DNA of 64,000 nucleotides from the NCBI GenBank assembly GCA_943355005.1, contig CALRDV010000004.1:7898-71897 (forward strand). The letters are read 5' to 3'. Numbering within the stretch: position 1 is the first letter of the stretch; each line of letters starts with the position of its first letter. The position numbers and the translations under genes are program-made. The notes beneath the pieces were generated by a model that saw only the letters and a list, made by a program, of their open reading frames with translations, was not told the origin of the DNA and did no database searches. Below are positions 5,312 through 59,773 of the stretch, in pieces. The stretch is from Patescibacteria group bacterium (GTDB lineage Bacteria > Patescibacteriota > Microgenomatia > UBA1400 > MFAQ01).

Positions 5312-5320
5312 TTTCACTTA

Positions 5321-5351
5321 GCCCTGTGTGTTTATCACACAGGGCTTTTTT
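5321..5351 (+). terminator. Rho-independent terminator (usable on both strands)
   Basis: GCCCTGTGTG pairs with CACACAGGGC across a short loop and is followed by TTTTTTGT. It lies between the convergent ATPase and ruvC genes. Confidence 0.6.
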
Positions 5352-5356
5352 GTGGC

Positions 5357-5827
5357 TTAACGGACCTTGAAGGCGTGGGTGAGAGCGATAGCAACTGCGT
5401 CGGCGGCGTCGTCCGGCTTAATTTTCTCTTTGAGATGAAGAATTTTTCCGACCATGAACTCGACTTGAGTTTTGTCCGCCTTACCATAACCGGTCAAAGA
5501 CGATTTGACCTGTAAAGGAGTGTACTGAAAAGTCGGAATTTTGGCTTGAGCACCTTCCAAGAGGATGACACCTCTGGCCGCAGCAACATCAATGGCTGTT
5601 TTAGCGTTTTTTTCAAAAAAAAGTGTCTCTACACTTAACACGTCAGGTTTGTGCATCTTTATCAATTCTTTGAGAAAATCGCTGATTTTCAGCAATCTAT
5701 CCGGTAAATCTGAGTTTGCCCTGGTTTCGAAACAACCACAGTCCACAAAAGTATCAATTCCCTTCTCGTGGCTAACAATCCCCCATCCTAATCTGCCAGT
5801 TCCTGGATCTATGCCTAATATCTTCAT
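5357..5827 (-). CDS. ruvC: Crossover junction endodeoxyribonuclease RuvC
   Basis: The N-terminus MKILGIDPGTGRLGWGIV is the RuvC signature. 156 aa. Confidence 0.85.
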   Translation of the reverse strand: MKILGIDPGTGRLGWGIVSHEKGIDTFVDCGCFETRANSDLPDRLLKISDFLKELIKMHKPDVLSVETLFFEKNAKTAIDVAAARGVILLEGAQAKIPTFQYTPLQVKSSLTGYGKADKTQVEFMVGKILHLKEKIKPDDAADAVAIALTHAFKVR

Positions 5828-5909
5828 AACACCATTCTACACAAACAAAATTGATTTAGAGTTTTATTTTGAACCTATTAAATGATAAAATAAGCGTGTT
5901 GGTTTTTTT

Positions 5910-5983
5910 GGGTCAGTAGCTCAGTCGGTTAGAGCACCTGCCTTTTAAGCAGGGTGTCGTGGGTTCGAGTCCCACCTGACCCA
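5910..5983 (+). tRNA. tRNA-Lys (anticodon TTT)
   Basis: 74-nt cloverleaf. Acceptor GGGTCAG pairs with CTGACCC, the anticodon loop is CTTTTAA, and the T-loop is TTCGAGT. No CCA is encoded. Confidence 0.85.
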
Positions 5984-6138
5984 CTATTCCATGTACTATG
6001 GCCTTGTGCCAAAGTACATGAAATAATAGTAAGTGAGGACTCGAACGGGCACAGTCACGACGGTGACGAGCCAGGTCCGAACAAAACTTGACCAGATGTT
6101 TATGTGAGGCGAGTCCCAAGTTTTTAAATTAACATGTT

Positions 6139-6211
6139 GGCCCCGTCGTCTAGTGGTTAGGACGTCAGGTTTTCATCCTGAATATCGCGGGTTCGAGTCC
6201 CGCCGGGGTCA
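6139..6211 (+). tRNA. tRNA-Glu (anticodon TTC)
   Basis: 73-nt cloverleaf. Acceptor GGCCCCG pairs with CGGGGTC, the anticodon stem is TCAGG/CCTGA with loop TTTTCAT, and the T-loop is TTCGAGT. Confidence 0.85.
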
Positions 6212-6221
6212 CAATAAAAAG

Positions 6222-6246
6222 AAGCTGGCTAGTCCAGCTTTTTTTA
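6222..6246 (+). terminator. Rho-independent terminator after the tRNA pair
   Basis: AAGCTGG pairs with CCAGCTT and is followed by a T5 run. Confidence 0.55.
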
Positions 6247-6354
6247 TTGTAAATTTGCGGAAGTCGAACAAGGCGTAGCTGATCTTGTAACAAGCTCAGC
6301 GAGCCCGGTCCTGAGGCGAATGAAATTCGACCGAAGGCGACTCCCGCCGCTATA

Positions 6355-6370
6355 TCCCGCCGGGGTCACA
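6355..6370 (+). repeat. 16-nt exact direct repeat of the tRNA-Glu 3' end (att-like remnant)
   Basis: TCCCGCCGGGGTCACA at 6198-6213 spans the tRNA 3' end and two nucleotides beyond it. It recurs at 6355-6370. A further partial copy, GACTCCCGCC, lies at 6339-6348. Confidence 0.6.
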
Positions 6371-6372
6371 AA

Positions 6373-7041
6373 TTGAAAAGATCGGCATTGAATACCGAGT
6401 GTTACAATACTCAAATGACCGAAATTGATAATAAATTTTCTTCGTTTAGAGAAAGATGGAATGGTAGAGCATCCACATGGGACACAGAGATATTAATGCC
6501 TGAACATTACGCCAATTTTGAGGAAGGATATCGGAAATTCCTTGATTTTGAAATAGTTGTTTTAGATGCTTTTCCAAAAGCACTGGTAGGAATTGATCTT
6601 GGTTGTGGTACAGGAATAGCAGCAGAACCTTTGTCAAAAAAGGTCGAGCAATTATTTCTATTGGATGTTGCTGAACAAATGCTTAAAGAGGCAAAGAAAA
6701 AATATCCTAACGCTGATATTTTCCATGAATCAGCGACGGCGATTCCGCTTGATGATAATTCGGTTGATGTGGCCGTTAGCCGTGGGGTGTTGATTTCGCA
6801 CTTACCTCAAGGAGAGTACAAAAACTTTTTAAGTGAAGTTCATCGAATTCTTAGGCCTGGAGGATTGTTTGTTTTTGATTTCCTTAATAATCTTGAAACT
6901 GCCGATTTTCACCTATCATCTGAAAAAACAGTATTTACCAGACAAGGTATCTCTGAAGAACTTAAGGAACATGGTTTTGGTGACTTGGTGTTTGATGGCC
7001 TAGATACAAATAGAGTATTGAGGGTGGCAACTGTTAAATAA
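6373..7041 (+). CDS. Class I SAM-dependent methyltransferase
   Basis: Motif I is VGIDLGCGTG. Post-I acidic residues, LRPGGLFVF and the DVAVS motifs follow. 222 aa. Confidence 0.6.
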   Translation: MKRSALNTECYNTQMTEIDNKFSSFRERWNGRASTWDTEILMPEHYANFEEGYRKFLDFEIVVLDAFPKALVGIDLGCGTGIAAEPLSKKVEQLFLLDVAEQMLKEAKKKYPNADIFHESATAIPLDDNSVDVAVSRGVLISHLPQGEYKNFLSEVHRILRPGGLFVFDFLNNLETADFHLSSEKTVFTRQGISEELKEHGFGDLVFDGLDTNRVLRVATVK

Positions 7042-7174
7042 CTCCGAACATTTTTTATATATCGCAGATAAAATAGTCACGGATTGGTTCAGGTTTTGTA
7101 TACTTGGGGTCACAGTGAAAAATCCTTCGCTTGTCGAGGGATTTTTTATTGTCATGAGAGGATGGTAGTTCTGG

Positions 7175-8437
7175 TTAGGGTACTCTTTCTACTTTAAATT
7201 GATTTAGAGTCGCTGTGAGAATTCCTTGTCTCTCGAGAAGCAACTTTCTGAGATCTGCTTCGGTGGCTTTCTCGTCGACTTCTTTTAGCTTTACAAATTC
7301 GTATTTTGTTTCTGGGTTTTTCAAGGCATCCTCAGCAGCGGCAAGTGCCTCCTTCAGAACCTGTTCTATCGCCCCTTGAACTTTTTTAATTAAGTCCGGA
7401 TGAACTTTAATCCCCCACCCGGACTGGAGTTCGGTGAAGGTCTGTACTAGCCCAGCTACTCCATTTAGACCCCATTCAGGACGTAGGACCTTACCCCGAG
7501 ACCAGTTATCCTTTTTGTCTCCTCCGATTATTTGGATGGGTAGCTGGATATGTCTGCGGAAGAGGTCTACAAATCTATCTTGAAAGGCTTTATCGCTTTT
7601 TTCATCGTCCTTTATGCAAAGCTCCCCTTGCTCGTTGAAGCCAATGGAGTTTCCAAAAATATCTTCAAAATGAAAGATCATCCTGGCTCTTTCTACCGCT
7701 TTGTTTAAATTTTCTGGTTTGTCAGGTTCAAATTTTTCTTTAAGAGAATTGTGCTGTTCGGAAAAGGCTTTTTCACGCCAGATATCTTCGTGAAAGCCGG
7801 AAAGGCCGATAATGAACCGAACATCCTCTGCACTAAAAATTACTGTTTCTTTGTTTGAGGCAACGAAGCTTTTGCCTAAGAGGTGTTTGCCAATTATTTT
7901 TCTATAAATCACTTCATGATCAGAATCGATTTGGGCGTTCATGCTTCCCAAGAGTTTGGGAAGGTCGTGTGTGCTTCCGCTAAACTCCATTAACAATAAT
8001 TGCCTCTCGGTAAGAAGCTGGCCACGCTCGTGACTATTGAGATACTTAGATAGTCCGGAGGAAATAGATGTCACCGTCTGATTTACCTCGTCGAGGTGCT
8101 GGAATAGTTCGCCGGGCTTATATAGACCTTTCAAAAAAACTAAGTTAGCATTTTTAGATTCTAGGGCAATACCTAGAAAAAGAGCTTTAAGTCTCAAATC
8201 GTAACGATCAAATGATTCTTCTTTATCCAAAACCTCTAGCCCCCTCTCAAGGAGTCCAATATTAATTGCCATTTGCTCCCTGGCTTCGAAATTTTCTTTT
8301 ATGGAAATTAGCTTATCTATTCTCGTGGTAGGAGAATCTTCTGGGGAGTAGAAAATGCCATTTAAATAATCTGACTCTTTGAAGCCCAGAAATCTCGTTT
8401 CGTTCGGAATTAATTTTTCTCCATATTCAAAAGTCAT
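7175..8437 (-). CDS. Hypothetical protein (420 aa)
   Basis: Long uninterrupted ORF with coding-like composition. I recognise no motif. Confidence 0.45.
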   Translation of the reverse strand: MTFEYGEKLIPNETRFLGFKESDYLNGIFYSPEDSPTTRIDKLISIKENFEAREQMAINIGLLERGLEVLDKEESFDRYDLRLKALFLGIALESKNANLVFLKGLYKPGELFQHLDEVNQTVTSISSGLSKYLNSHERGQLLTERQLLLMEFSGSTHDLPKLLGSMNAQIDSDHEVIYRKIIGKHLLGKSFVASNKETVIFSAEDVRFIIGLSGFHEDIWREKAFSEQHNSLKEKFEPDKPENLNKAVERARMIFHFEDIFGNSIGFNEQGELCIKDDEKSDKAFQDRFVDLFRRHIQLPIQIIGGDKKDNWSRGKVLRPEWGLNGVAGLVQTFTELQSGWGIKVHPDLIKKVQGAIEQVLKEALAAAEDALKNPETKYEFVKLKEVDEKATEADLRKLLLERQGILTATLNQFKVERVP

Positions 8438-8485
8438 ATATCAAAGGAAATTTTATCACCTACAGACCCAAGCTCCACTTACAAA

Positions 8486-8510
8486 AACCTCCCCGAAAGG
8501 GGAGGTTTTG
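8486..8510. terminator. Bidirectional hairpin terminator
   Basis: AACCTCCCC pairs with GGGGAGGTT across a GAAA loop, with A/T runs on both sides. Confidence 0.5.
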
Positions 8511-8547
8511 AGAGCTTAAAACTTGAATATTATTCTTGATCGATAAG

Positions 8548-9255
8548 TTACTTAAAATTCTCCCGATATATTTGATCAGAAACATATGACATACAGCACC
8601 TAACACGTATCTTTTCTAAGTGTATCCAATCAAATCCTCCAGTTTTGACTAAACCGTAATCAGCTGGAAAATTATTAGGACAGCCATCTTTTTTGTTTAT
8701 GGCCTTAACCGAGTACCCATCTTCTATTTTCAAACCAAGTGCATTTAGGCATGCCGTATGAGGAGGAATTGCTTTCTTGTTAATTGTTTTAACCGGGGCG
8801 GCTGAAGGATTTCCCCCACCAAAATTAGCTTGAGTGGTTGGAGTGGGGGTGGAGTTATTTGTGGGAATAGAGGTGGGAACCGCCAATTGAGTGTTCGAGG
8901 TGGGTCTTGCTGTGGGAGCAGTGGAAACTACAGAAGCAGGATTGTAAGTAGTTCCTGTTGGGTTGGCTGCGGGCTTGGATGTGACGTTTGTTTTTGGTGC
9001 TGGTGCTGCAGTTGGTTTATATGGAGTTGGTGACTTCGTGGGGGCAGGTGTTGTTCTGGTGGTATATGGATCTGATTGAACCATTGCATATCTGTTGGTT
9101 CCGAGAACATTGCCACGGGCTTTAGCGGAGTAGCTAAGTCCGGAGCCGACGACTGCCATCAGGAGGGCGAACATTCCCAGCTGTCTAGCGAGAGGTGAGA
9201 AAGGTGAACCTTTAGTAAATCTCTTGTTTGAGCGGGCAGCCGTGGGTTTCTTCAT
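8548..9255 (-). CDS. Secreted/membrane-anchored Pro-Thr-rich protein with C-terminal Cys-containing domain
   Basis: The likely start is MKKPTAARS... at 9255, followed by a hydrophobic anchor. The protein has a long PT/PA-rich low-complexity linker and a C-terminal domain with 4 Cys. Confidence 0.5.
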   Translation of the reverse strand: MKKPTAARSNKRFTKGSPFSPLARQLGMFALLMAVVGSGLSYSAKARGNVLGTNRYAMVQSDPYTTRTTPAPTKSPTPYKPTAAPAPKTNVTSKPAANPTGTTYNPASVVSTAPTARPTSNTQLAVPTSIPTNNSTPTPTTQANFGGGNPSAAPVKTINKKAIPPHTACLNALGLKIEDGYSVKAINKKDGCPNNFPADYGLVKTGGFDWIHLEKIRVRCCMSYVSDQIYRENFK

Positions 9256-9380
9256 ATTTTTTGGTTGTAATTTAATAATATGAAATATCAAGCGTACTGT
9301 CAAATTGTATTTATCACGACCTCACCATCCTAATATTTAGAAAAATTTTTACAACTACTCGATATTTTTATGAAAAGTGT

Positions 9381-9932
9381 TTAGTTGTCCTCTGCAGGAA
9401 TGGATGGCATTGCCGGAATGGATGGCAAGCCCTTCATCATTTCACCAAGATCGGTGAATTTGACATCAGCAGGTGGAACAAATTCGGAGTCTTGAATAAT
9501 CCTAGTAGAACAGTCGACTTTGTATTTGGTTTCATCTTCAAAACCAGTGGCTTGGTCAGCGGGATTAACCGACTCAGGAATATTTCCGGTCACGGAAGGA
9601 GTTGGTGTTTCGGCGGCAACTTTTGTTTTTATACCGGTTTTGGTTCCTTCGTCCCACATATATGTATAGATATTGTCGTTAATGACTGTGCCCTTTTTGC
9701 CTTCACCCAAGTCAGAGCCGACAATCTTCATCTTTTTTCCTGAAATGGTCATCTGAGTACTGGTACTGTCTGCCAAATTAGTAATTTTACAATCCGCTTG
9801 ACCACCCCGACTAATTATTTGGCCTAGCTTTTCTGCTTTTTGAGTATTGGTGCCTGTAATAGGTGCTGAAGGTGAAAGAGAGCATCCGGAAAGAACTAAT
9901 GCGATGGGAAGAATAAATACCAACTTGTTCAT
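9381..9932 (-). CDS. Putative lipoprotein
   Basis: N-terminal signal with lipobox LSGC (MNKLVFILPIALVLSGCS). 183 aa. Confidence 0.55.
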   Translation of the reverse strand: MNKLVFILPIALVLSGCSLSPSAPITGTNTQKAEKLGQIISRGGQADCKITNLADSTSTQMTISGKKMKIVGSDLGEGKKGTVINDNIYTYMWDEGTKTGIKTKVAAETPTPSVTGNIPESVNPADQATGFEDETKYKVDCSTRIIQDSEFVPPADVKFTDLGEMMKGLPSIPAMPSIPAEDN

Positions 9933-45794: not shown

Positions 45795-46904
45795 TTATGG
45801 CTCGAGGAGGTCTAGGCCTTTGACGGAAGGGAGTGACTGGCCGGCGACACCCTGAATACTGCCATAGATACCGGCGGTACTCATGATGATTCGCTCTGCT
45901 TGAGCTTCTCTCTCTTTCCAAATCTTTTCGAAGGCAGCTCGCTCTTTGGAAATCTGGAGTTGCATATTTTGATGCACCTCGATAATACTTTGGATTTGCT
46001 GAACAAAGGCGTCACTTGTGAGATAGGTATAAATCATATCGGCTTTGGTTCCCCTATCCTGGCCATTATGCTTTTCTCTGGCAATATCAATCAAATTCTT
46101 TCGAAGAATTTCAGCCAAGGGCTGAACATACTTTGGCTCGGCTACCCAGACTCCTTGGAAAAAACCAAAGCCGGATTTCACTTCTTTGGGCAAGACAGTC
46201 GTGATGATGACCGGGATGTTCGCTTTGGAAGCACGCAAATCATCTTTTAGTTTGACTGCCCAATCATCTACCCAGGCTTTGGTACGTTTTGATTCCCACA
46301 AAATTACACCACAGGTAGTGCCAAGATTGGTACGGACCACTTGGCTGATATCTGCACCCCTCACACCTTTACCCACGGGATTAATTTCGTCATGAGGAAA
46401 GGCGGTGTGTAGATATTCTTCCAGATCCAGCTCTTGTACCTCTCCTTGGAGCTGTTGGGAACCTTGATTGGCTTTTAACTGGGCATCTTCTAGAGATTTT
46501 TTGAGATCGTTAATCATTTTCTCTTTCTCCAAATCTTTCAGCCGGTGAGCATCACTGGCTTCCAATAAAGTTTGTTGACGGATTTTGTCCCTCTCCTGAT
46601 CAAGTTGCTTTTGCTTTTCCAGCTCAAAATTTTTCTTTTCATCTTCCAGTTTCAGTTTCTCCTGATGCATTTTTAATGCTTCGGCTCTAGCTTCAGATAA
46701 TTTTTGGTCTTTAAATTTTAGTTCTTCTTCTATTAATTTAGTTTTATCCGCCAATTGAACTCGAACTTTTTCTTCAGATTCTTTTTCGAATTTTATCTTT
46801 AATTCTTCTCTATCTTTCTCGAGCTGCTCCTTATTAGACTGGCTCATGGCATCCGAGATTTCGAACTCTTCTCCGCATTTGGGGCATTTTATTTGATTGG
46901 GCAT
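45795..46904 (-). CDS. DUF2130-like protein: N-terminal Zn-ribbon, long coiled-coil, C-terminal restriction-endonuclease-like domain
   Basis: MPNQIKCPKCGEEF (CxxC). About 150 aa of E/K-rich heptads. The C-terminal domain contains GADISQVV ... ILWESKR. True start at 46904. Confidence 0.5.
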   Translation of the reverse strand: MPNQIKCPKCGEEFEISDAMSQSNKEQLEKDREELKIKFEKESEEKVRVQLADKTKLIEEELKFKDQKLSEARAEALKMHQEKLKLEDEKKNFELEKQKQLDQERDKIRQQTLLEASDAHRLKDLEKEKMINDLKKSLEDAQLKANQGSQQLQGEVQELDLEEYLHTAFPHDEINPVGKGVRGADISQVVRTNLGTTCGVILWESKRTKAWVDDWAVKLKDDLRASKANIPVIITTVLPKEVKSGFGFFQGVWVAEPKYVQPLAEILRKNLIDIAREKHNGQDRGTKADMIYTYLTSDAFVQQIQSIIEVHQNMQLQISKERAAFEKIWKEREAQAERIIMSTAGIYGSIQGVAGQSLPSVKGLDLLEP

Positions 46905-46961
46905 TTTATTATTATATTCGGTATTTGTTAGGGTTTGCAAGAGCAGTGTTAGAATACGAGC

Positions 46962-47429
46962 ATGACAAGCTTTAGTGAAAGAGCAGCAAGAGTATATGGG
47001 ACGGGAGAGAAAAAACCGGAGCAAAATGTGTCCTGGATTCCAAAAAAGGCAACTGGGGGTCCTCTAGCTCAGTTTAAGAAAGAGCATCTGGACGAAAACT
47101 ACCTAAGCCAAGTCCGAGCAGAGGAAATCCTAACTAGCCAACACAAGCCTGGAGAAATCTTTGAGATGGTGAAGGAAATGCTGGAAATTATTTGTCACAC
47201 AGATGAGATAGATACCCAGCTAGCCAACTTTCACGAATCCTATGGAAAGTTTTATGAAAAATATGAAGGTTTACTTGTCCAAGCGATAGAAGAGTTTATT
47301 GAGGATAAAATCAACTTCCTGGTCTATTCGGGCCATATCGATAAAGAAATCCTAAAAGGAAAGATAAAGGAAATTGAGCAAAGGAAGAGACGGGAAAAAA
47401 GAGAGCATAGAGAAGCGGCAAATCAATAG
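46962..47429 (+). CDS. Hypothetical protein (155 aa)
   Basis: ORF divergent from the DUF2130 gene; no motif. Confidence 0.35.
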   Translation: MTSFSERAARVYGTGEKKPEQNVSWIPKKATGGPLAQFKKEHLDENYLSQVRAEEILTSQHKPGEIFEMVKEMLEIICHTDEIDTQLANFHESYGKFYEKYEGLLVQAIEEFIEDKINFLVYSGHIDKEILKGKIKEIEQRKRREKREHREAANQ

Positions 47430-47844: not shown

Positions 47845-48768
47845 GTGAAAACATTTTTGAGGCTCTTGTTATTTTTTGTTTGTGCGGGAATCGTGGTTTA
47901 TGGTGCTCAAAATATACCTTTAGGTGATTTTGGCAAACAATTGATAAGCCCAAAAATCTATCTCCAGAGAAACAGTTCTAAATTTCTTCAAGATTGGACT
48001 AGGGAAGATATACTGTCGAAAATCAACACAGCAAGAGAAAAGGAAGGCTTTTCCAGAGTAACAATAAACGATAAACTGAACAAGGCAGCTCTCAACAGAA
48101 TGTCTGTAATATTGTCAGAAAATGATTATGATGGTACTCTAACCGGTGTGACAAGAGAGGCATCGATAAAAAGTGCGGGGTATGATGCGAATCTTATTGG
48201 AGATGTTGTGTTAATGGACTTTTTCAAAACCAACGATCCGATCTTGGAATGGGAATCAGACAGTGTCACTAGAGGTACCTTGATGCATCCTGATTTTAAA
48301 AATGTAGGTATCGCGATAAAAAATGATCAAGATACCGTAAGTGTGTATGTAATTTTTGTATCCCCACAAAAAGTAATTCCGGCGCCGGTTGTAAAGAAGA
48401 TTACTTGGGGTGGACCCGATTTGTGGTCATCTGTCAACAAGAGAAGAGTTGAGCTTGGGGTAAACCCCTTAAACAAGAAAGACGAACTCTGCACTATCGC
48501 CTCCATAAGACTAAACCAGCTACTGGAATTAAAAAAGCTGGACGGTCATGCAGGCTTTGTACCAACCCTAGACAGAGAAGATTTGAAATGGATTTCTCAA
48601 AAATATAATATTAGTGAATTCCTTGCCCAAGGTTACGATACTCCAACAGATACAGTGGCTGCCTGGGAAAACACACTTGGTCACAAGGCGTTACTTTCCG
48701 GAGGTGAATATGTCTGGGGTTGTGTGTACGCTCAAAATACTTTCGCAGTCGCCATCGCAGCGTATTAG
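47845..48768 (+). CDS. Secreted hypothetical protein (signal anchor), possibly CAP/SCP-like C-terminus
   Basis: N-terminal hydrophobic signal. The C-terminal ...GHKALLSGGEYVWGCVYAQN weakly resembles the CAP-domain GH..W..C signature. Confidence 0.35.
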   Translation: MKTFLRLLLFFVCAGIVVYGAQNIPLGDFGKQLISPKIYLQRNSSKFLQDWTREDILSKINTAREKEGFSRVTINDKLNKAALNRMSVILSENDYDGTLTGVTREASIKSAGYDANLIGDVVLMDFFKTNDPILEWESDSVTRGTLMHPDFKNVGIAIKNDQDTVSVYVIFVSPQKVIPAPVVKKITWGGPDLWSSVNKRRVELGVNPLNKKDELCTIASIRLNQLLELKKLDGHAGFVPTLDREDLKWISQKYNISEFLAQGYDTPTDTVAAWENTLGHKALLSGGEYVWGCVYAQNTFAVAIAAY

Positions 48769-49643
48769 ACAATGAAGCTGTCTTCCGTATCCTCTACTTC
48801 GGGAATTACTTCTCTATCGAGAATATAAGTATCCCGATGACCCATCTCCCCCACACGCTCCCCTTCTCCTCTGATAATGGCTTCGATAGGGCGACACTGG
48901 TAGCAGCCATCTCTGCCATTTGGGCACTCGAATTTTTCCAACTTGCGGGCTAACTTAATCTTCCGACCAATATCAAGAACCTGAGTATTGGCCTCTTCCA
49001 TATCAGGTAGTTCTTTTTCTTTGGGTAGGTCGGAAAAGTCCAAATACCAATAGCTGGCTCCGGAGATTTTTCTTTTCTGACAATTGCTGACCAACAGGAG
49101 ATAAATGGGTAGCTGAAGTGAGGAAGAGGTTTCTTCCTTTTTACTGGTTTTGAAGTCCAATATATGAACACTGTCTGTGTCTTTAAAATACTCGAGCCAG
49201 TCGACTTTGCCACAAAGGATAATATTCTCATCTTCGGACAGCCAATAGTAAGGTAAACTTTCTTTAATTTTTACGGCAAAATTTAGTAAGGGACCCGGAT
49301 GGTCCATAACTCTTCTGAGCATGGCTTTACCTCTTTCTTTGTATTTATGCTCTTCATCTAAATCTTTGAAGCCACCTTTCTTGCCCGAGTACTTATCCCA
49401 GAGCGCGTCAAATTTAAGGACCAAAGATTCTTTGAAGCGAACATCGGTAGGAATAATAGAAAGAGATTCGATAACTTCGTGGACAGCAGAACCCAGCGCT
49501 AGGGCTGGAGAAACAATTTGAACTTTGTTTCCGGTAGCTCTATCCTTGTAAATATTTTTTAGATAGTATGCCCTGGGGCATTGGAGGTAATCACTAATTG
49601 AAGTATGAGAAACCCAAACAGCAGAGTATTTATCTTTTGGCAT
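48765..49643 (-). CDS. PD-(D/E)xK nuclease, Cas4/RecB-like (paralogue of 43029-43796)
   Basis: N-terminal QCPRAYY. The core motif is ILDFKTSK (D-x-K). C-terminal CPNGRDGCYQC forms the Cys cluster. Confidence 0.65.
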   Translation of the reverse strand: MPKDKYSAVWVSHTSISDYLQCPRAYYLKNIYKDRATGNKVQIVSPALALGSAVHEVIESLSIIPTDVRFKESLVLKFDALWDKYSGKKGGFKDLDEEHKYKERGKAMLRRVMDHPGPLLNFAVKIKESLPYYWLSEDENIILCGKVDWLEYFKDTDSVHILDFKTSKKEETSSSLQLPIYLLLVSNCQKRKISGASYWYLDFSDLPKEKELPDMEEANTQVLDIGRKIKLARKLEKFECPNGRDGCYQCRPIEAIIRGEGERVGEMGHRDTYILDREVIPEVEDTEDSFIV

Positions 49644-51562: not shown

Positions 51563-52714
51563 ATGGACGTATCACCCACAACAGAACCTATTAATCCGGT
51601 ACCGCAATTTGAAGTGACTCCCCAACCAGTTCAAATTATTCCGACTCAAAACATCCAGCCTCTTAATTCTCCTTCAGAATTCCATACAAAATTAAGAAGT
51701 TATTCTCTGATAATTAGTGTTATTGGAGTTTTTATAATCATCTTCATCGCGGTTATTTACTTAATCTCTCCCAAGAAATTAGCGGAGACCACTGTAGCTT
51801 CACTACCTTCACCCACTCCACTTATTACTACACCTATTACAAACACCCCCACCATTCAAATTACCAACTTTTTATCACCTACCCCCACATCTACGCCAAC
51901 AGAGTGCAACTCGCCTTTGGCACCGCTAAATGTCAGACCTTATGTAAGGTGTTACTATCGACAAATTAAAATTGACCAACTTGAAGCTCAGGCGGTAGAA
52001 AATAGAATTAGTCAAACGGTTGGTAGCCTGACCATTCCCATAAGTTTGGTTTTTGAACACTCTGAAGTTTATAAGGGAATCCCCATAAAATGGACAAAAA
52101 ATCAGCCGTTAACCCCAGACGTCTTAACTTGGCTCAAGGCTGGCATCGACATCTTACCTAACTATTTTAATATTGACCATCCCGTTGCAGCGATAATTTC
52201 AGCTACTGATGAGGAATTGGAGTCGAAGTCAATAATCAAACCAGGACCAGACACTATGGCATATGCAAGTGGTTTAAATATATTTATTACCGCAACAACT
52301 GCAAAAGGTGGATCAACGTATTACCCCGTAGACAAGACATCTATTATAAATATCCTATTTCATGAATGGGTGCATGTAGTCCAGTACTACGAAGCACTTG
52401 AGACTTTTACCGAAGAATATTTAGCTAAAGGTAGGTTGGTCGAAGCAATGGCCACAGGTCCTCTGGAGAAAGGTTTTGCAAAAGAAGTTGGGTGGGTATA
52501 CAACAGTGATGAGTTCGGCGACGGAATAATAGCAAAACTTAAAGCTGATAGCGAATCCCAAAAAACGACTGATTATGGAAAAACCAAGGTTAGAGAAGAT
52601 ATGGCGGAATCAGGAGCACTGTTTATGGTTTGTAAATCAAATCTAATATCTGAAGCTCGGATTCTGTGGTGGGAAAAGACTACCGGTGAAAGTCGTACTA
52701 AATTTTGTCACTAG
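51563..52714 (+). CDS. Membrane-anchored hypothetical protein with PT linker and HExxH motif
   Basis: TM anchor, a PSPTPLITTPITNTPT linker, and FHEWVHVVQYYE, which suggests a zincin-like metalloprotease fold. Confidence 0.45.
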   Translation: MDVSPTTEPINPVPQFEVTPQPVQIIPTQNIQPLNSPSEFHTKLRSYSLIISVIGVFIIIFIAVIYLISPKKLAETTVASLPSPTPLITTPITNTPTIQITNFLSPTPTSTPTECNSPLAPLNVRPYVRCYYRQIKIDQLEAQAVENRISQTVGSLTIPISLVFEHSEVYKGIPIKWTKNQPLTPDVLTWLKAGIDILPNYFNIDHPVAAIISATDEELESKSIIKPGPDTMAYASGLNIFITATTAKGGSTYYPVDKTSIINILFHEWVHVVQYYEALETFTEEYLAKGRLVEAMATGPLEKGFAKEVGWVYNSDEFGDGIIAKLKADSESQKTTDYGKTKVREDMAESGALFMVCKSNLISEARILWWEKTTGESRTKFCH

Positions 52715-52734: not shown

Positions 52735-54042
52735 TTAAAGAGAATCAACCTGTTGCCTAAGTCGCCTCAAAAAATCAATAACTCTGGCGTCCATAATAAT
52801 GCTTTCTTCGCTGATGGGTCTAATAAGCTTTAAACCCGATAAAGTAGTGCATCTACTGAGAGCGACGTAAGTTTGCCCGTGGGCAAAGGCTCCCCTGCCG
52901 AGATCGATGGCGACTTTTTCAAAGGTTTTTCCTTGGCTCTTGTGGATGGTGATGGCCCAGGCCAAGCGGATGGGCATTTGGTTGTAGCTTCCCACCTCAT
53001 TTGTTTCGAGGGCTGCTTTCTCAGGATTAAATACAGTTTTGAAAGATTTCCAGGTCACTGGTTCGATTCTCTCAAGCTCTCCCCCATCAATTTTGACGAA
53101 AACTACATCTGACTGAGCTCTAAATAAGGTGCCAACCGTGCCATTGATCCAGCGACCTTGTGGATCATTGTTTAAGAGCATGACTCTGGCGCCTGTCTTA
53201 AGAACGATAAGTTCGGCAGCGGGAGCTTGACCCTCGGAAAAATCACCGGACCTGATAGCTCGGAAAGAAAAGGTAGGTCCTTCGATTTGATCTAGCCTCG
53301 TCTGATTTATTTTGTCGGCTTGGTCGTTTATCGCCGTGAGGATAATATAGTCTTCGATAAAATCCCCTTCTCCCACAACTTGATTATTTAGCTTTTCGAT
53401 ATCTTTTACCGTGGTTTCTTTGTTTCTAATTTTGTTCAAAAGTTCAACAAAATTCTTTTCTTTTTGGCGGTAAATCTTATCCAACTCGATAAACTTCAAC
53501 TGAGAATATAGCCCTCCAAAGAGGTCATTAAAAACTCTGGAGGAAAAAAAGTATGGCGTTTCGTACATAGCCGCCAAAGCGTCCTTTTCTACGTAGGTTA
53601 CCACAGGGGGAAGCTGATGAAGATCACCAACCATGATAATCCTTACACCTCCAAAAGGAATATCTCTCTTCCTTGCAGACCGCAAAAATGCGTCAATACT
53701 GTCAAACAAGTCTGCTCGAACCATAGAGATTTCGTCGATAACCAAGATATCTAAGGTGTTGTAAATTTTTGATTTTTTCGTCCGTTTGGCATCCAGTGTT
53801 GCTTTGTCCGGAGTAATGTTTGGTGCAAAACCAAAAAATGAATGAATCGTTTCACCTCTGACATTTACTGCTGCAACCCCTGTAGGTGCAATAACGGCGA
53901 TATTTTTCATCGTAGAGTTTCTAAAATGATCAAGCAGAGTGGACTTCCCCGTGCCGGCGTTGCCGGTCAAAAAAATGTGTTCTTGGCCATTCTCCATTAT
54001 TTCCAAAACGGCTTTGGATTTTTCATCAAAAGTTAATGACAT
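52735..54042 (-). CDS. PIF1-family SF1B DNA helicase
   Basis: Walker A GNAGTGKSTLL, Walker B DEISMV, the PIF1 signature VGDLHQLPPV, and the C-terminal TIHKSQGKTF (UvrD_C_2-like). 435 aa. Confidence 0.75.
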   Translation of the reverse strand: MSLTFDEKSKAVLEIMENGQEHIFLTGNAGTGKSTLLDHFRNSTMKNIAVIAPTGVAAVNVRGETIHSFFGFAPNITPDKATLDAKRTKKSKIYNTLDILVIDEISMVRADLFDSIDAFLRSARKRDIPFGGVRIIMVGDLHQLPPVVTYVEKDALAAMYETPYFFSSRVFNDLFGGLYSQLKFIELDKIYRQKEKNFVELLNKIRNKETTVKDIEKLNNQVVGEGDFIEDYIILTAINDQADKINQTRLDQIEGPTFSFRAIRSGDFSEGQAPAAELIVLKTGARVMLLNNDPQGRWINGTVGTLFRAQSDVVFVKIDGGELERIEPVTWKSFKTVFNPEKAALETNEVGSYNQMPIRLAWAITIHKSQGKTFEKVAIDLGRGAFAHGQTYVALSRCTTLSGLKLIRPISEESIIMDARVIDFLRRLRQQVDSL

Positions 54043-54044
54043 GT

Positions 54045-54746
54045 TTATATCGAAAGTAATAAATGATTCCGGTGTAGCCAGCGCCGGTGTTCTTTGTATC
54101 TGGGGTCAAACTTGGCTACCAAACCCCAAAAATGACTACTGTGATTCCGGTGAACCATGTGGCAAACCTCATGAATCACCACATAATTAACTATCTCATG
54201 TGGAGCCATAATTAGCTTGCGATTGAAGCACAGTTTATTATCCGGAGAACAACTTCCCCAGATGGAAGAAACTTTCTTTATATCTATGCGACTATAATCG
54301 ACACCGATTTGCTCACTATAATAATTTACTTTCTCGGTGATAACCAAAATTCCGGTTTCCAGATACCATCGTAGCATGCCATCTTTCAGCTCCGTAATTC
54401 TCTTTGGGCCCACATACCCCTTGTATACAGAAGCGGTAAGGATTTCTTCGTTGATTTCCACTCTAGTTCTACCGGGGGTATCTGACTCAATAATATTCAG
54501 GGGGTATTCCCGACCAAAGAAAAGGTGCTTTTCTCCATGCTCGTATTTTTTTTCTTCTGGTCTAGGTGACCTGACGGATAGATGCTTCATTATCCAATCT
54601 GATTTTTCCTCTACAAATTTTTTGATGGCAAAGGCTGGTAGCCAAAAAGGTGCTCTGACTGTGACTCCCCTTTCCGGGTGCACACTAATTGTGGCTCCGG
54701 AAGCAATCCGTTTCGATCTAATTACTTTATATTCAAATGGAGGCAC
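54045..54746 (-). CDS. YgjP/DUF45-family metal-dependent hydrolase (M48 superfamily)
   Basis: The N-terminus ...YKVIRSKRIASGATISV..GVTVRAP is DUF45-like. HEVCHMVHRNHS..FW is the HExxH motif. It lies 2 nt upstream of the helicase in the same orientation. Confidence 0.65.
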   Translation of the reverse strand: MPPFEYKVIRSKRIASGATISVHPERGVTVRAPFWLPAFAIKKFVEEKSDWIMKHLSVRSPRPEEKKYEHGEKHLFFGREYPLNIIESDTPGRTRVEINEEILTASVYKGYVGPKRITELKDGMLRWYLETGILVITEKVNYYSEQIGVDYSRIDIKKVSSIWGSCSPDNKLCFNRKLIMAPHEIVNYVVIHEVCHMVHRNHSSHFWGLVAKFDPRYKEHRRWLHRNHLLLSI

Positions 54747-54773
54747 GCCGACTATTGTAAACTAAATTCAACT

Positions 54774-55397
54774 TCAGAGTATTTCCAAGGAGTAAATAAT
54801 GGAGTCGGAAAGGGCAACCAGACTCTTGTCGGTGGAATCTTTGATAATGAGGTAACTTTTTTCTCTGGGGACGTAATAATAGGTTATTTCCTGACCGTCC
54901 TCTATGGTCGTAAAGGTAACTCCTGTGATTTCGCCTATGGAAATGGGTGAAATTGAATCAATCAGCTTAAAGCTGTCCCCCATTTTGGTAATTTTGGAAT
55001 TAATGTTTGACTCCGCTAGAGTATTCACTGTATCCTTGTCGTTTAAATTTTCAAGAGAAATATTAATTTTCAATAGATCTCCAAAAAGAGTTAAGGATCG
55101 ATTAATTTCTTTTTTTGGATTGATGCCACTAGGAAACTTAATCCTAATTTCCAGAGTTGAATCCTCATAAGATTTCCATGCCGAGGTGTCTGAAAGAAGT
55201 GTGGTTGAGGCTCCTAGAGTTTCCGGAGTTGACGCTGATTCTGTAGCGGAGTTTAATGAAATTTCGTTTTTTGGAGGAACTACGGGGATTTTATTCCAAT
55301 AAGTACTTAGTCCGTATATGGATATGACCACTAAAAGCAAAATTGCTTTGAGCATATGATAACAATATCTTATCCTACTTAGGATATTTTTTCTCAA
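54774..55397 (-). CDS. Secreted hypothetical protein (207 aa)
   Basis: N-terminal hydrophobic signal. It is the first gene of the putative operon that continues with DUF45 and PIF1. Confidence 0.4.
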   Translation of the reverse strand: MRKNILSRIRYCYHMLKAILLLVVISIYGLSTYWNKIPVVPPKNEISLNSATESASTPETLGASTTLLSDTSAWKSYEDSTLEIRIKFPSGINPKKEINRSLTLFGDLLKINISLENLNDKDTVNTLAESNINSKITKMGDSFKLIDSISPISIGEITGVTFTTIEDGQEITYYYVPREKSYLIIKDSTDKSLVALSDSIIYSLEIL

Positions 55398-55523
55398 ATT
55401 CGTTATTTTACAGGGCAGCGGAGTGTAAATGGAGCGGGATAGGGGAATCGGACCCCCTTCTCATCCTTGGGAAGGATGCATTCTACCGGTGAACTAATCC
55501 CGCGATGGCTTATTTTATGCTAG

Positions 55524-55663
55524 GTGGAGTGAGATTGCCACAGCTCGAGTACGAGATTCGCAATGACGGTCTTTGTCATTCCTGCGCAGGCAGGAATCCA
55601 TTCAATTATTCCGAATTCTGTATTTATTTGATGGATTCCGGGTCAAGCCCGGAATGACAAGGT
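55524..55663. repeat. Cluster of dispersed palindromic (MITE/REP-like) repeat units
   Basis: Three units: GGTGGAGTGAGATTGCCACAGCTCGAGTACGAGATTCGCAATGACGG; GTCATTCCTGCGCAGGCAGGAATCC; and GATGGATTCCGGGTCAAGCCCGGAATGAC. Related copies lie at 31183-31225, 42996-43030, 47752-47825, 58761-58898 and 59521-59690. Confidence 0.65.
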
Positions 55664-56390: not shown

Positions 56391-57450
56391 CAGGAAGGGC
56401 CAGAACTAGCCAGAAAGTAAAATTGAGCCAGATGTAGAAGAAGCTGTTGTTGAAGAAACTGTGAAAAAGTATCGTGAACATAAATATCTTGATGGGCAAA
56501 GAGATCTCAGCCAGAGCCTTCTTTATCAATACGAAGAAAGTGATTAATCCTGCCAACCCCGTAGTGGCAGCAATAGCAATATAACTATTGTCTATCTGGA
56601 ATCTATCTCCGGTAATGTTCCTTAAGGTGTTATAACCCCAGCCGAACAGTGGCCTTTGGATAAATAATTCGAGCCCTGTTCTCCAGCTGTCAAAACGGGA
56701 AAAAATTGAAAAAGTTCTTAGTAAATTAACCCCTTCTCCAAAAGGCTTAGGAATAATCCAAATAAGTAAACCTAAACCTAAGAGAAATAAGGTTAGAGAG
56801 TATTTTTTATTTACGATTAACAAATAAACAATACCCAAAAGGAAACAGAGGTAGGATGCTCGAGAAAAGGTCAGAGCCAAAAGAATTATTAACGGCAAAC
56901 TAGCCAACCAACTCCCCAAAGAAATAAATGACAGAGCGCTTGCCGCCAGAATTGCCCCGGTGAAGTTTGGATCGTAAAGAGAGCCAATCAAACGAAAATA
57001 GTGATCATCAAAGCCGATCAGTTTCAAATATCTCATGTCCGGGAATAATAAATATTGAAGAGCACCAAGGAGACAAAAAATTGCCAAGGAAATTAGAGCC
57101 GGTTTTAATATATTTTTTTTGGAGTTTAATTTGGCGGCGAAGTAAACTGATGGGTAGGCAAACAATCTACCCAAATAGAGGAGGGGATAGATAATTCCCC
57201 CGCTTTGAAGATTTTTCAGATTAAACACCAAAGAAAGCAGAGCAACTCCTAGAAACCAAGCCAAGGGCATAAATAACTTATCAGTATAGATTTTGGCGTG
57301 GTTCTTTCTTCCTACAATAAGTGAAACGGTAAGCAGACCAAGGACGATATCCAAGAGGTAAACATTGCCAATGGAGCCGGGAATTGAAAAAGCAAGTAGT
57401 TGCCCAAATGGCCAGACAAAAATGGAAAGAATTAATAATAAATAAGTCAT
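56368..57450 (-). CDS. Polytopic membrane protein, O-antigen ligase/polymerase (Wzy_C)-like
   Basis: About 10 TM segments with a large periplasmic loop. The annotation follows the glycosylation-cluster context. 360 aa. Confidence 0.45.
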   Translation of the reverse strand: MTYLLLILSIFVWPFGQLLAFSIPGSIGNVYLLDIVLGLLTVSLIVGRKNHAKIYTDKLFMPLAWFLGVALLSLVFNLKNLQSGGIIYPLLYLGRLFAYPSVYFAAKLNSKKNILKPALISLAIFCLLGALQYLLFPDMRYLKLIGFDDHYFRLIGSLYDPNFTGAILAASALSFISLGSWLASLPLIILLALTFSRASYLCFLLGIVYLLIVNKKYSLTLFLLGLGLLIWIIPKPFGEGVNLLRTFSIFSRFDSWRTGLELFIQRPLFGWGYNTLRNITGDRFQIDNSYIAIAATTGLAGLITFFVLIKKALAEISLPIKIFMFTILFHSFFNNSFFYIWLNFTFWLVLALPVKGYTQE

Positions 57451-58937
57451 TTTGTCAGTTTAAATATTTGAATTCCCAATTTATTTGTATTTACCAAAAC
57501 CCCCTTGATATTTCCCGAGTCCTCCCCTATCGTTACCAAATAATCATACCCCGAAAAGTTTGTGACCCATGAAGTATGATCAAAATCACGAGGGAAATAA
57601 TATAGATTGTGCAGCTTATCTACGATTATTTTACTGTCTTTTGGAAGACTTGCGACAAAGCCATCCGCATCAATAAAGATTCCAGGCAGGCGAAAATATT
57701 GAGAGGTTAAAAGAGTGTTTGTGTCTACCCTACCCAACAAGAACGGAATGTATTTTTGCATAGCCAGCAAGCGAAGCCCTAAGATTAAAAAGCCCGATAA
57801 AATAACTGCCCAAAATGTGATTTTTTGATAGATTGCATTTTTTATAGTGCTTAGGTAGACAATAACCGAAACAATTAGAGCCGGAAAGTAAGGCAAGAAA
57901 TACCTGGTGGAAGGTGGGACCAGAATCATGGTGAGAATACTGCCGAGTATGCCTACTACGGCAATTTTTCCAGCAATATTGTTTTTTTGCTTCAGAGAAA
58001 TTATGGCTAAGATAAAAACCAATCCCACTAGTGGAGAAACAAAATCATCAAAAGGTTTTGTGAGATACCATGGCGTAAGCAAAACGTGCTGAAAAGCACT
58101 TCCAATACCCGAAAATGAGTTGTCTGTAAGACCACTAAACAACGGATAAATTGGATTTCCGGTAAACCTGTATGCCAAATAGAACCAAGGAGAAGCCACC
58201 AAGATTGCAGGAAAAATGATTTGAGGACCAAACACAATACTATAAATCGCCAAAGTACCGAGCGCGAGCCATTTAGTGCCTATTGCCAGCCCCAAAAAAA
58301 TGCCTCCTATTTTCCAAGAACCTTTAATACAAAAATATAAAGCCAAAGCTTCCAAAAAAGTTCTAATGAGATCTATGTAGGCACTTCCAGACTGCCAGCT
58401 CACTAGCCAGGTGCAGTAAAAAAGAGAAACGCCAATCAATTTCCACAATGTGGTTTGTTTAAAATTCTCCAGAATTTTCCAGATGACATATCCCGTTCCT
58501 ATTCCGGCTAAGTATTGGACCAATTTGGGTCCAACGGTGCCGGTGAAGTGGATGAGAGGGGTGAAAATGGTTTCGGCTAGTCTTGGCATGACCGAGTAAT
58601 AAAGTAGCCCACCCGGGAAATACCATTGGTGCTTTAAAAGCCACAATTTTGGGATGGTCAGGTGGTACCAGAGCGCGTCGAAGCCGAGCTCGGGGGTGAA
58701 GACGAGGAGAAAATTGAGGAGGGCTAGTAAAATGATGGGGACTAAAAGAAGCACTACTAACCTGGATTGCCACAGCTCGAGTACGAGATTCGCAATGACG
58801 TGGGTGGAGGGAGATCGATTAACAGCTATTTTGTCATGCCGGACTTGATCCGGCATCCAGGCTTTTCTGGATTCCGGGTCGGAGTCCGGAATGACGTCAA
58901 TTATTTTTGAGTTAAGAGTTAGTTTTGGTTTTCCCAT
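57447..58937 (-). CDS. GT-C fold membrane glycosyltransferase-like protein (ArnT/PMT-like); N-terminal ~55 codons are repeat-derived and probably not coding
   Basis: Many TM helices followed by a C-terminal soluble domain. The 5' end of the ORF (58761-58937) coincides with dispersed repeat units. Confidence 0.45.
   Translation of the reverse strand: MGKPKLTLNSKIIDVIPDSDPESRKAWMPDQVRHDKIAVNRSPSTHVIANLVLELWQSRLVVLLLVPIILLALLNFLLVFTPELGFDALWYHLTIPKLWLLKHQWYFPGGLLYYSVMPRLAETIFTPLIHFTGTVGPKLVQYLAGIGTGYVIWKILENFKQTTLWKLIGVSLFYCTWLVSWQSGSAYIDLIRTFLEALALYFCIKGSWKIGGIFLGLAIGTKWLALGTLAIYSIVFGPQIIFPAILVASPWFYLAYRFTGNPIYPLFSGLTDNSFSGIGSAFQHVLLTPWYLTKPFDDFVSPLVGLVFILAIISLKQKNNIAGKIAVVGILGSILTMILVPPSTRYFLPYFPALIVSVIVYLSTIKNAIYQKITFWAVILSGFLILGLRLLAMQKYIPFLLGRVDTNTLLTSQYFRLPGIFIDADGFVASLPKDSKIIVDKLHNLYYFPRDFDHTSWVTNFSGYDYLVTIGEDSGNIKGVLVNTNKLGIQIFKLTK
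58761..58898. repeat. Dispersed palindromic repeat units
   Basis: CCTGGATTGCCACAGCTCGAGTACGAGATTCGCAATGACG is a near-exact copy of 55527-55566. TGCCGGACTTGATCCGGCA and TTCCGGGTCGGAGTCCGGAATGACG palindromes follow. Confidence 0.6.
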
Positions 58938-59773
58938 TGGAAGGTGCGGACGGTTAGTGATTGGACTGCCATCAAGTAAGCCAAAAATAATCCCGCCGTG
59001 CCGTCCAGGATTCCAGCTTTAAAGAAATAATTGACTTTAAATTTGAGCAGGGGATAGAAAATTAGACGAAACCAGGAAAATGGTTTGTTTTCTAAATTTA
59101 AATATTTCGCATCAATGGGACTGTACTTTCCCATTCTGTTCGAAAATGCAGACACAAAATGATCTTTCCGGTGATAGAGAGGTGATGCCAGCTCCCCTAC
59201 CCTACCTTTGATTTTCCAAACTTCATGGACAGTTCTAAAAAAATTTCCGGCGCTCCGCTTGGCCAACCTGAGAATTTTTATGTTTCCAGTTTCACCATGG
59301 CTTAAGGGCTGATGAAAAATGACATCTTTGCGACGTATACAGTAACCTGAGCACTTTGGATCTTTGAGGGTTTCAATTATTTCTCTTTGAAGCTCACTTC
59401 CCACATATTCATCATCATCCACAAATAGTACCCAGTCGGCCTTGGTCTGCTCTAAAGCGAAGTTTCTTTGGGCTGAGAAGTCGGAGTTGAGTGGGTGAGA
59501 GATGTATTTTATTTTTGATTTTTTGTTTTGGTCCAGATGGATCCCCGCCTTCGCGAGGATGACATTTGCGGAATTTCTGGATTCCGGGTCAAGCCCGGAA
59601 TGACGGGTGACGGTACCTGGATTCCAGGTCAAGCCCGGAATGACTGAAGTTGAGTCGAGGATGACAGAAATTGAATCCTGGATTACGATGATTTCGTCGG
59701 CGAAAGAAATTGACTTTAATAACTGTGAACTAAGAATCGAATTATTTGTAATGATGGCGACAGCTAGTTTCAT
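58919..59773 (-). CDS. GT2-family glycosyltransferase carrying an in-frame repeat insertion
   Basis: MKLAVAIITNN...ADEIIV and DDDE are GT2 motifs. Residues about 34-83 (DSISVILDSTSVIPGLTWNPGTVTRHSGLDPESRNSANVILAKAGIHLDQ) are encoded by repeat units at 59521-59690. Confidence 0.55.
   Translation of the reverse strand: MKLAVAIITNNSILSSQLLKSISFADEIIVIQDSISVILDSTSVIPGLTWNPGTVTRHSGLDPESRNSANVILAKAGIHLDQNKKSKIKYISHPLNSDFSAQRNFALEQTKADWVLFVDDDEYVGSELQREIIETLKDPKCSGYCIRRKDVIFHQPLSHGETGNIKILRLAKRSAGNFFRTVHEVWKIKGRVGELASPLYHRKDHFVSAFSNRMGKYSPIDAKYLNLENKPFSWFRLIFYPLLKFKVNYFFKAGILDGTAGLFLAYLMAVQSLTVRTFQWENQN
59521..59690. repeat. Tandem/dispersed palindromic repeat units inside the GT2 ORF
   Basis: CTGGATTCCGGGTCAAGCCCGGAATGACG at 59576-59604 and CTGGATTCCAGGTCAAGCCCGGAATGACT at 59617-59645 are 41 nt apart. 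GAGGATGACA occurs twice. Confidence 0.6.

Follow-up and report, generated by a model that had tools for sequence, protein, structure and literature searches.

Pif1-family helicases are DNA motors that move in the 5'-3' direction and that, in eukaryotes, dislodge proteins and pass barriers (PMC3113762). Structures have been solved for several bacterial members, including those from Deferribacter/Sulfurihydrogenibium (8bns, 8bnv), Bacteroides (BaPif1; 5ftb, 5fhd) and Thermus oshimai (6s3e). The physiological role of bacterial Pif1 is an open question, and the papers on the solved enzymes name no partner gene (PMC3113762, PMC9964779). Proteins of the widespread YgjP/DUF45 family are regular appendages of type I restriction systems. 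In the RRDM defence island of enteropathogenic Escherichia coli (EPEC), an arrangement of hsdR followed by a YgjP-like gene ('M48 / SprT family metallopeptidase') has been recorded, and the peptidase was given no role (PMC12255303). Our literature search found no biochemical study of the YgjP/DUF45 family and almost nothing relevant to it.

We analysed a 64,000-nt stretch of DNA (hereafter the window) from a Patescibacteria group bacterium of the Microgenomatia (contig CALRDV010000004.1, positions 7,898 to 71,897), in which, unlike in these accounts of Pif1 enzymes, the helicase gene directly abuts a gene for a YgjP-like zincin. Each of the two genes is an ordinary member of a known family; their pairing, and its conservation in a lineage of the candidate phyla radiation (CPR), were not found in the searchable literature. 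The initial annotation, a note made from the sequence only, had known of no described system of this kind. This judgement holds: the Pif1/YgjP pair recurs in the clade, and full-text literature searches returned no description of it. We propose, with a probability of about 45%, that YgjP and Pif1 form a lineage-conserved functional helicase-protease module for genome maintenance, and not for defence.

The YgjP-Pif1 pair in Microgenomates

Both genes lie on the minus strand of the window. The YgjP-like (DUF45) gene (54045..54746) begins with GTG and encodes a putative zincin metallopeptidase of 233 aa, which is predicted to be cytoplasmic and is basic (pI 9.5). Two nucleotides (TAA-AC-ATG) separate it from the downstream gene for a Pif1-family SF1B DNA helicase (52735..54042), a 435-aa protein that consists of just the helicase core and lacks WYL and other accessory domains. 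Promoter and terminator scans of the locus gave nothing exceeding the shuffled background; it is therefore from the spacing alone that we infer that the two genes are probably co-transcribed and translationally coupled.

Homologue contigs were fetched over a range of Pif1 identities, and YgjP and Pif1 were adjacent in all ten syntenic Microgenomates lineages obtained (Pif1 identity 52-72%). In the order YgjP→Pif1, the spacer is 1 nt in L081-L084 (Pif1 identity 72%) and in L092 (56%), 2 nt in L085 and L086 (65%), 3 nt in L087 and L088 (57%), 4 nt in L124 (55%) and 7 nt in L093 (54%); the genes are adjacent in the same order in L098 (70%) and L099 (68%). The order is swapped in L090 (52%): Pif1 comes first and overlaps YgjP by 14 nt, and the flanks are different. 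About 35 further Pif1/YgjP cluster pairs have equal-sized longest contigs, some of just 2.4-5.5 kb, and the equal contig sizes, some of them tiny, suggest that both members of these pairs point to the same contigs. Among named organisms, the nearest Pif1 homologues belong to Candidatus Collierbacteria (74%), to a 'Microgenomates group bacterium' (72%) and to Woesebacteria (65%), and the named YgjP relatives also include Beckwithbacteria. These names likewise assign the window to a Microgenomates (CPR/Patescibacteria) chromosome.

The pair is embedded in a shared block that is chromosomal and vertically inherited. One side of the block holds genes for GT2, a 443-aa protein, Wzy_C, an Ig-like surface protein and tRNA-Gly, and the other side genes for MFS, DUF192, PAP2, a Cas4-like PDDEXK_1 nuclease, a CAP protein and DUF2130, in the same order in the window on both sides. 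Immediately next to the pair the block is variable. The upstream flank is occupied by a 193-aa membrane protein, a 182-aa minus-strand open reading frame (ORF), guanylate kinase or a HIT protein, and the downstream flank by MFS or DUF192, or by a 383-aa insertion in the case of the window. Outside the envelope genes of the block, the YgjP-Pif1 junction alone is never broken. The window further encodes dnaE, a Clp-type ATPase, pyruvate kinase, a P-type ATPase and four other tRNAs, and this core-chromosome context is consistent with a module for genome maintenance.

The whole 12-kb neighbourhood is syntenic in the clade, including plainly unrelated envelope and transport genes, so the adjacency of the pair, taken by itself, could be inherited gene order; this point weighs against a functional link. 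YgjP and Pif1 would then be two unrelated housekeeping genes that are neighbours in slowly rearranging small CPR genomes and are co-transcribed for economy, with no shared function, and the locus would be an ordinary one. The retention of the entire block along with the pair, on both sides, is what such an explanation predicts, and we regard it as possible though rather unlikely. Functional coupling is somewhat favoured over it because the junction is never broken while both flanks vary, because the adjacency survived the swap of gene order in L090, and because the spacing is uniformly tight, with 1-7 nt between the genes or a 14-nt overlap.

Identity of the helicase and the zincin

The helicase scored 110.3 bits against the Pfam family PF05970 (PIF1; cut-off 25.9) and contains the motifs GNAGTGKS, DEISMV, GDLHQLPPV and ITIHKSQGKTF, in agreement with its initial description as a full PIF1-family helicase. 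Over 17 homologues no variation was seen in these motifs or in the Walker A, DE, Q and arginine motifs, and the protein was matched by phrog_325 ('Dda-like helicase') at 2.9e-87. Residues 3-432 align full-length to the solved bacterial Pif1 structures with E-values of 7e-133 to 8e-76 (7e-133 for 8bns, 7.5e-80 for BaPif1 5ftb), and human PIF1 was matched at 4e-52. The solved Pif1 structures overall gave E-values between 7e-133 and 4e-47, compared with 5e-6 for RecD2 (3e1s). The NCBIfam models for RecD2 (TIGR01448) and RecD (TIGR01447) returned 86.5 and 71.5 bits against cut-offs of 500 and 310, respectively. The structure E-values and the sub-cut-off NCBIfam scores rule out a RecD2 or RecD identity, and by these comparisons the helicase is a true Pif1, not a RecD2. 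The initial annotation had envisaged that the helicase might group with housekeeping RecD2-type enzymes found in all relatives; its presence in all syntenic relatives fetched in effect agrees with this and speaks against the defence reading, although the enzyme itself is a Pif1.

For the region that lies between motif II and motif III, the Pif1 signature consensus DKLeXvARaiRkqXkPFGGIQ was used (PMC3113762). The corresponding stretch of the window helicase (residues 114-134) is DSIDAFLRSARKRDIPFGGVR, a degenerate Pif1 signature: it agrees with the consensus at 8 of its 19 specified positions (D, R, R, K, PFGG) and is conservative at three others. Within the clade D114, L120, R124, F130, G131 and G132 are invariant. 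A degenerate signature motif is known from distant members of the Pif1 family (PMC3113762). Like the solved bacterial enzymes, the window helicase has all SF1B motifs, and it shares the minimal helicase-core architecture of BaPif1, whereas the two closest structures carry a C-terminal WYL domain that it lacks (PMC9964779). Many Pif1 relatives with 48-52% identity (L089-L091, L125 and others) are likewise WYL-containing proteins of ~515-530 aa (C-terminal PF13280), and the Microgenomates Pif1 enzymes are all core-only proteins of ~430 aa.

The upstream partner scored 189.4 bits against PF01863 (YgjP-like; cut-off 26, E 1e-55), covering profile positions 4-206 of 207, and its 233-aa form with the GTG start agrees in length and N-terminus with 47 homologues. 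It contains an HExxHxxxxxH site (HEVCH), whose residues H192, E193, H196 and H202 are invariant in the homologues, and presents an HExxH metal site and a third ligand on a zincin fold. The initial assignment of this gene to the DUF45 HExxH hydrolases is borne out, with the hydrolase activity itself predicted. The conservation of the putative catalytic residues in both YgjP and Pif1 is in line with a working module.

An AlphaFold model of YgjP, based on 48 sequences, had a mean pLDDT (predicted local distance difference test) of 91 and would consist of a β-rich N-terminal domain of ~110 residues and a helical C-terminal catalytic domain. A search of PDB sequences with YgjP gave zero matches. 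The closest structural neighbours of the model are the minimal self-inhibited proteases proabylysin and selecase, which are not DNA-dependent. They are followed by two eukaryotic proteases for DNA-protein crosslinks that act alongside helicases or unfoldases, SPRTN (score 8.9) and Wss1 (8.5 and 8.1), together with BepA, BlaR1 and HtpX of the M48/M56 enzymes, and more remotely by CapP (6.2), ArdC (5.1) and IrrE (4.9). Minigluzincins (proabylysin, projannalysin and selecase) are single-domain archaeal proteins of ~105 aa with no DNA-related context, and YgjP differs from them by its additional N-terminal domain of ~110 aa. The likeness to SPRTN and Wss1 is one of fold and idea only: the window YgjP has a different N-terminal domain, and the ubiquitin, SUMO or p97 interaction modules are absent. 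In Pfam the scores of YgjP for the SprT-like (PF10263) and WLM (PF08325) families were below the gathering cut-offs, a point against our reading.

These neighbours bear on the target of the predicted enzyme. In E. coli, the YgjP protein is listed as a UTP pyrophosphatase of weak activity. YgjP might act on the helicase, as a regulatory or turnover protease for Pif1, or on nucleotides, as a metal-dependent hydrolase, so that its link to Pif1 would be regulatory or metabolic. Such a role would be compatible with the co-production implied by tight gene coupling and with closest fold neighbours that are self-inhibited and independent of DNA. We nevertheless find it quite improbable: no gene for a cleavage target or for a regulator is kept beside the pair, and the uniformly basic character of the family (pI 9.3-10.2 for every member collected) fits nucleic-acid binding better than a metabolite enzyme. 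No hydrophobic segment or signal peptide was found in the window YgjP. A basic protein with no signal peptide, with SPRTN and Wss1 among its fold neighbours, would suit a genome-maintenance module.

Pif1 and YgjP-like genes in other contexts

Outside the clade, 96 Pif1 loci with 41-50% identity were collected among the matches listed, from many bacterial phyla and five metagenome-assembled genomes (MAGs) of DPANN archaea, and were searched with a clade-specific YgjP hidden Markov model and with tblastn. A YgjP-like gene was adjacent to Pif1 in one of these loci and within ~3 kb in three, and the other 93 had none within 5-8 kb. YgjP was also missing beside Pif1 in five lineages of 51-54% identity with other contexts (among them L089, L091, L125 and one JGI contig). 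A general linkage of Pif1 and YgjP over bacteria is thereby ruled out. The near-absence of the pair elsewhere speaks for inherited gene order, as does the fact that most bacterial Pif1 genes among these matches have no fixed partner (PMC3113762), and it weighs on the side opposed to our reading.

The three loci with a nearby YgjP are nonetheless more than expected, a point against inherited order. Assuming one YgjP per ~3 Mb, our rough estimate of the expected number is ~0.4, which gives an equally rough Poisson p of ~0.007; the frequency is still far from a general rule. Two of the three carry the same YgjP subfamily as the Microgenomates: in L017 YgjP is located 3 kb upstream of Pif1 on the same strand, with trigger factor between them, and in L043 the two genes are divergent and 1.6 kb apart. 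This loose linkage (1.6-3 kb) of the same subfamily to Pif1 at two distant loci is a further reason to favour functional coupling. The initial annotation had considered that PIF1 and DUF45 homologues might never co-occur elsewhere, and the pair was found to recur throughout the clade.

The third locus, L077 (positions 4044-9548 of a contig from an alphaproteobacterial MAG), has a different organization. There the genes overlap in series, hsdR (1071 aa) with a YgjP-like gene and this gene with that for a 531-aa Pif1-WYL fusion, and the trio adjoins a tyrosine integrase, with a tRNA-Arg nearby, a defence-island-like setting for Pif1. The five DPANN contigs carry Pif1 homologues with 44-46% identity (L024, L037, L051, L052 and L053, assigned to Aenigmatarchaeota, Nanoarchaeia, Woesearchaeota, Micrarchaeota and Marsarchaeota), which point to cross-domain spread or to binning errors.

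For YgjP, homologues were present in 552 plasmid records, where they are named 'SprT family zinc-dependent metalloprotease' or 'M48 family metallopeptidase'. Seven annotated plasmid examples were sampled. In five, the YgjP-like gene lies immediately 3' of hsdR, the two genes overlapping by 1-4 nt or being 2 nt apart; a sixth is convergent with hsdR, and the seventh borders an unannotated gap and a DUF262 gene. Six of the seven sampled genes therefore adjoin hsdR, in accordance with the earlier statement that DUF45 genes usually sit beside restriction genes. A scan of viral contigs with the YgjP alignment produced one locus.

The hsdR→YgjP loci resemble the window pair in that the protease belongs to the same family (PF01863) and its gene lies a few nucleotides from that of an ATP-driven DNA translocase. 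This recurrent coupling to a DNA motor, HsdR, is a further point in favour of a module. The differences are that the partner in the window is an SF1B helicase and in type I restriction the SF2 protein HsdR; that the window protease gene is upstream of the motor gene, whereas the hsdR-linked one is downstream; that the context is the core chromosome in the window and a plasmid or island for hsdR-YgjP; and that the window YgjP belongs to another subfamily, with 23-30% identity to the hsdR-linked proteins. In a rough neighbour-joining tree, the YgjP proteins of Microgenomates, L017 and L043, Acetoanaerobium and one viral contig were apart from all hsdR-linked ones, including that of L077.

Two of these results must be set against our reading. 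Owing to the separation of the subfamilies in the tree, a generalization of YgjP as a partner of DNA motors may not carry over from HsdR to Pif1. The closest YgjP from outside the CPR (36% identity), on a 2.6-Mb Acetoanaerobium replicon, is solitary among metabolic genes, and this replicon has no Pif1 at E < 1e-30; a close homologue in such a position is also what inherited gene order would allow.

The initial annotation had placed the pair in an accessory or defence-island context, and an anti-phage or anti-plasmid system that has so far escaped description, consisting of the Pif1 helicase and the DUF45 protease in an accessory island, has to be considered. Several observations could be cited for it: YgjP-like genes are regular parts of type I restriction loci and defence islands (PMC12255303), L077 combines hsdR, YgjP and Pif1-WYL beside an integrase, and Pif1 homologues are widespread in phages and over phyla and domains, which suggests mobility. 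In PADLOC-DB 2.0, the window Pif1 also gave partial matches to candidate defence proteins, confined to those parts of the PDC-S68, RecD-like and PDC-M16A models, all of them much longer, that make up the ATPase core. The same scan detected no defence system and gave no match for YgjP or for the protein encoded upstream of it. In each syntenic relative fetched, the pair has one and the same position within the conserved block of the chromosome, and the window is similar to all of them in its gene content; the island context proposed initially is thus not supported, and no integrases, transposases or other defence genes were found within the block. The annotated genes that flank the window pair include no hsdR/M/S gene up to ~7 kb away on each side, the GC content of the locus is unremarkable (0.41-0.42, compared with 0.37-0.47 over the window), and the Microgenomates YgjP falls outside the hsdR-linked subfamily. 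Defence is accordingly rejected as the principal explanation of the pair, given the absence of a PADLOC system and of mobility genes and its fixed position in a conserved core block, and we consider it very improbable. A prophage or plasmid origin was likewise rejected: phage Pif1-like genes are at most 45% identical, no phage record among the matches listed carries both genes, and Pif1 is rare on plasmids (25 records).

Possible joint action and neighbouring features

If the module interpretation is correct, YgjP and Pif1 would be co-produced and would act together on DNA. By analogy with better-known enzymes, Pif1 could translocate 5'-3' along single-stranded DNA until it meets a protein that is bound tightly or trapped covalently; YgjP, as the DNA-associated zincin, might then cleave this obstacle, or the stalled motor itself, and the cleavage would let replication or repair go on. 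The pair could in this way be a minimal counterpart of a helicase combined with a SPRTN/Wss1-type protease, with a parallel in the coupling of hsdR to YgjP. This specific mechanism of roadblock or crosslink clearing is, in our estimate, doubtful. An extension of it, equally speculative, would make YgjP-like zincins dedicated proteolytic partners of DNA motors, of HsdR in restriction and of Pif1 in Microgenomates, with Pif1-YgjP serving as a minimal machine that clears crosslinks or bound proteins ahead of replication or repair.

Were YgjP a partner of DNA motors, the pair would represent a prokaryotic counterpart of SPRTN/Wss1 with accessory helicases and would provide the first physiological role and the first partner for a bacterial Pif1. 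It already offers a candidate partner to a bacterial helicase whose role is open, and to a widespread family known beside restriction genes, together with the hypothesis of a protease working with a DNA motor. This hypothesis can be addressed with purified proteins, an approach that suits unculturable organisms. Interest in the pair is moderate, since a single lineage supplies the evidence for coupling.

The initial annotation had assigned the two genes to an operon of three co-directional genes with spacers of 2-27 nt. All three ORFs are on the minus strand as described, with 27 nt between the first gene and YgjP and 2 nt between YgjP and Pif1. The first gene (54774..55397, minus strand) encodes a putative membrane-anchored or exported protein with no assigned family, of 207 aa from a TTG codon. 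Its relatives are 193-199 aa long, which makes a start at the ATG of codon 15 (55355) more likely and the protein probably one of 193 aa. One N-terminal hydrophobic segment (aa 12-30) is compatible with the earlier label 'secreted protein', but the gene is not a conserved member of the unit. Homologues were found in L081-L086 only (55% and 31% identity), and other genes fill its position in L087, L090, L092, L093 and L124. Family scans of the protein (Pfam, NCBIfam, PADLOC, PHROG) gave nothing above threshold. Because unrelated genes replace the upstream gene in several lineages, a three-gene operon that includes it was rejected, and the conserved unit consists of two genes, YgjP and Pif1.

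A gene for tRNA-Gly(CCC) (55430..55503, minus strand; ARAGORN, Rfam 56.9 bits) lies directly upstream and is co-directional. The same tRNA is found upstream of the pair in L081, L085, L087 and L090 and is a conserved landmark of the syntenic block.

On the downstream side, a 383-aa ORF (51563-52714, plus strand) is convergent with Pif1. With a strong transmembrane helix (aa 50-68), a linker rich in Pro and Thr and the motif HEWVH, its product may be an exported zincin, and it had no match in Pfam, NCBIfam, PADLOC or PHROG. The ORF is missing at this position in every syntenic relative and thus represents a lineage-specific insertion between MFS and Pif1. Further along, the Cas4-like PD-(D/E)XK nuclease with a cysteine cluster (48765-49643, minus strand) and the DUF2130 protein (45795-47024, minus strand) are encoded no more than a few kilobases away from Pif1 in every syntenic relative, the rearranged L090 among them. 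One idea raised by this arrangement is that Pif1 and a Cas4/AddB-type nuclease might act like a Dna2 split into two proteins.

The repeat cluster reported immediately upstream of the three genes consists of short dispersed palindromic units (55533..55658). Repeats do exist near the genes, but tRNA-Gly(CCC) lies between, and the units, of 26-36 nt, are few and dispersed, occurring also at 58765 and 59579-59644. A 36-nt repeat has exact copies at 55533 and 58765 (58765-58800), and the 26-nt unit GGATTCCGGGTCAAGCCCGGAATGAC is present in three copies (55633, 59579 and 59619); none would be expected by chance in either case. The repeats near the pair are small dispersed elements by a conserved tRNA, not an island marker. 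Two of the repeat sites are located inside long ORFs, one at 57447..58937 (496 aa, compared with 443 aa in relatives) and the other encoding GT2 at 58919..59773 (284 aa, compared with 241-264 aa), which suggests that the units may be elements resembling miniature inverted-repeat transposable elements (MITEs), inserted in frame or at the 5' ends of genes.

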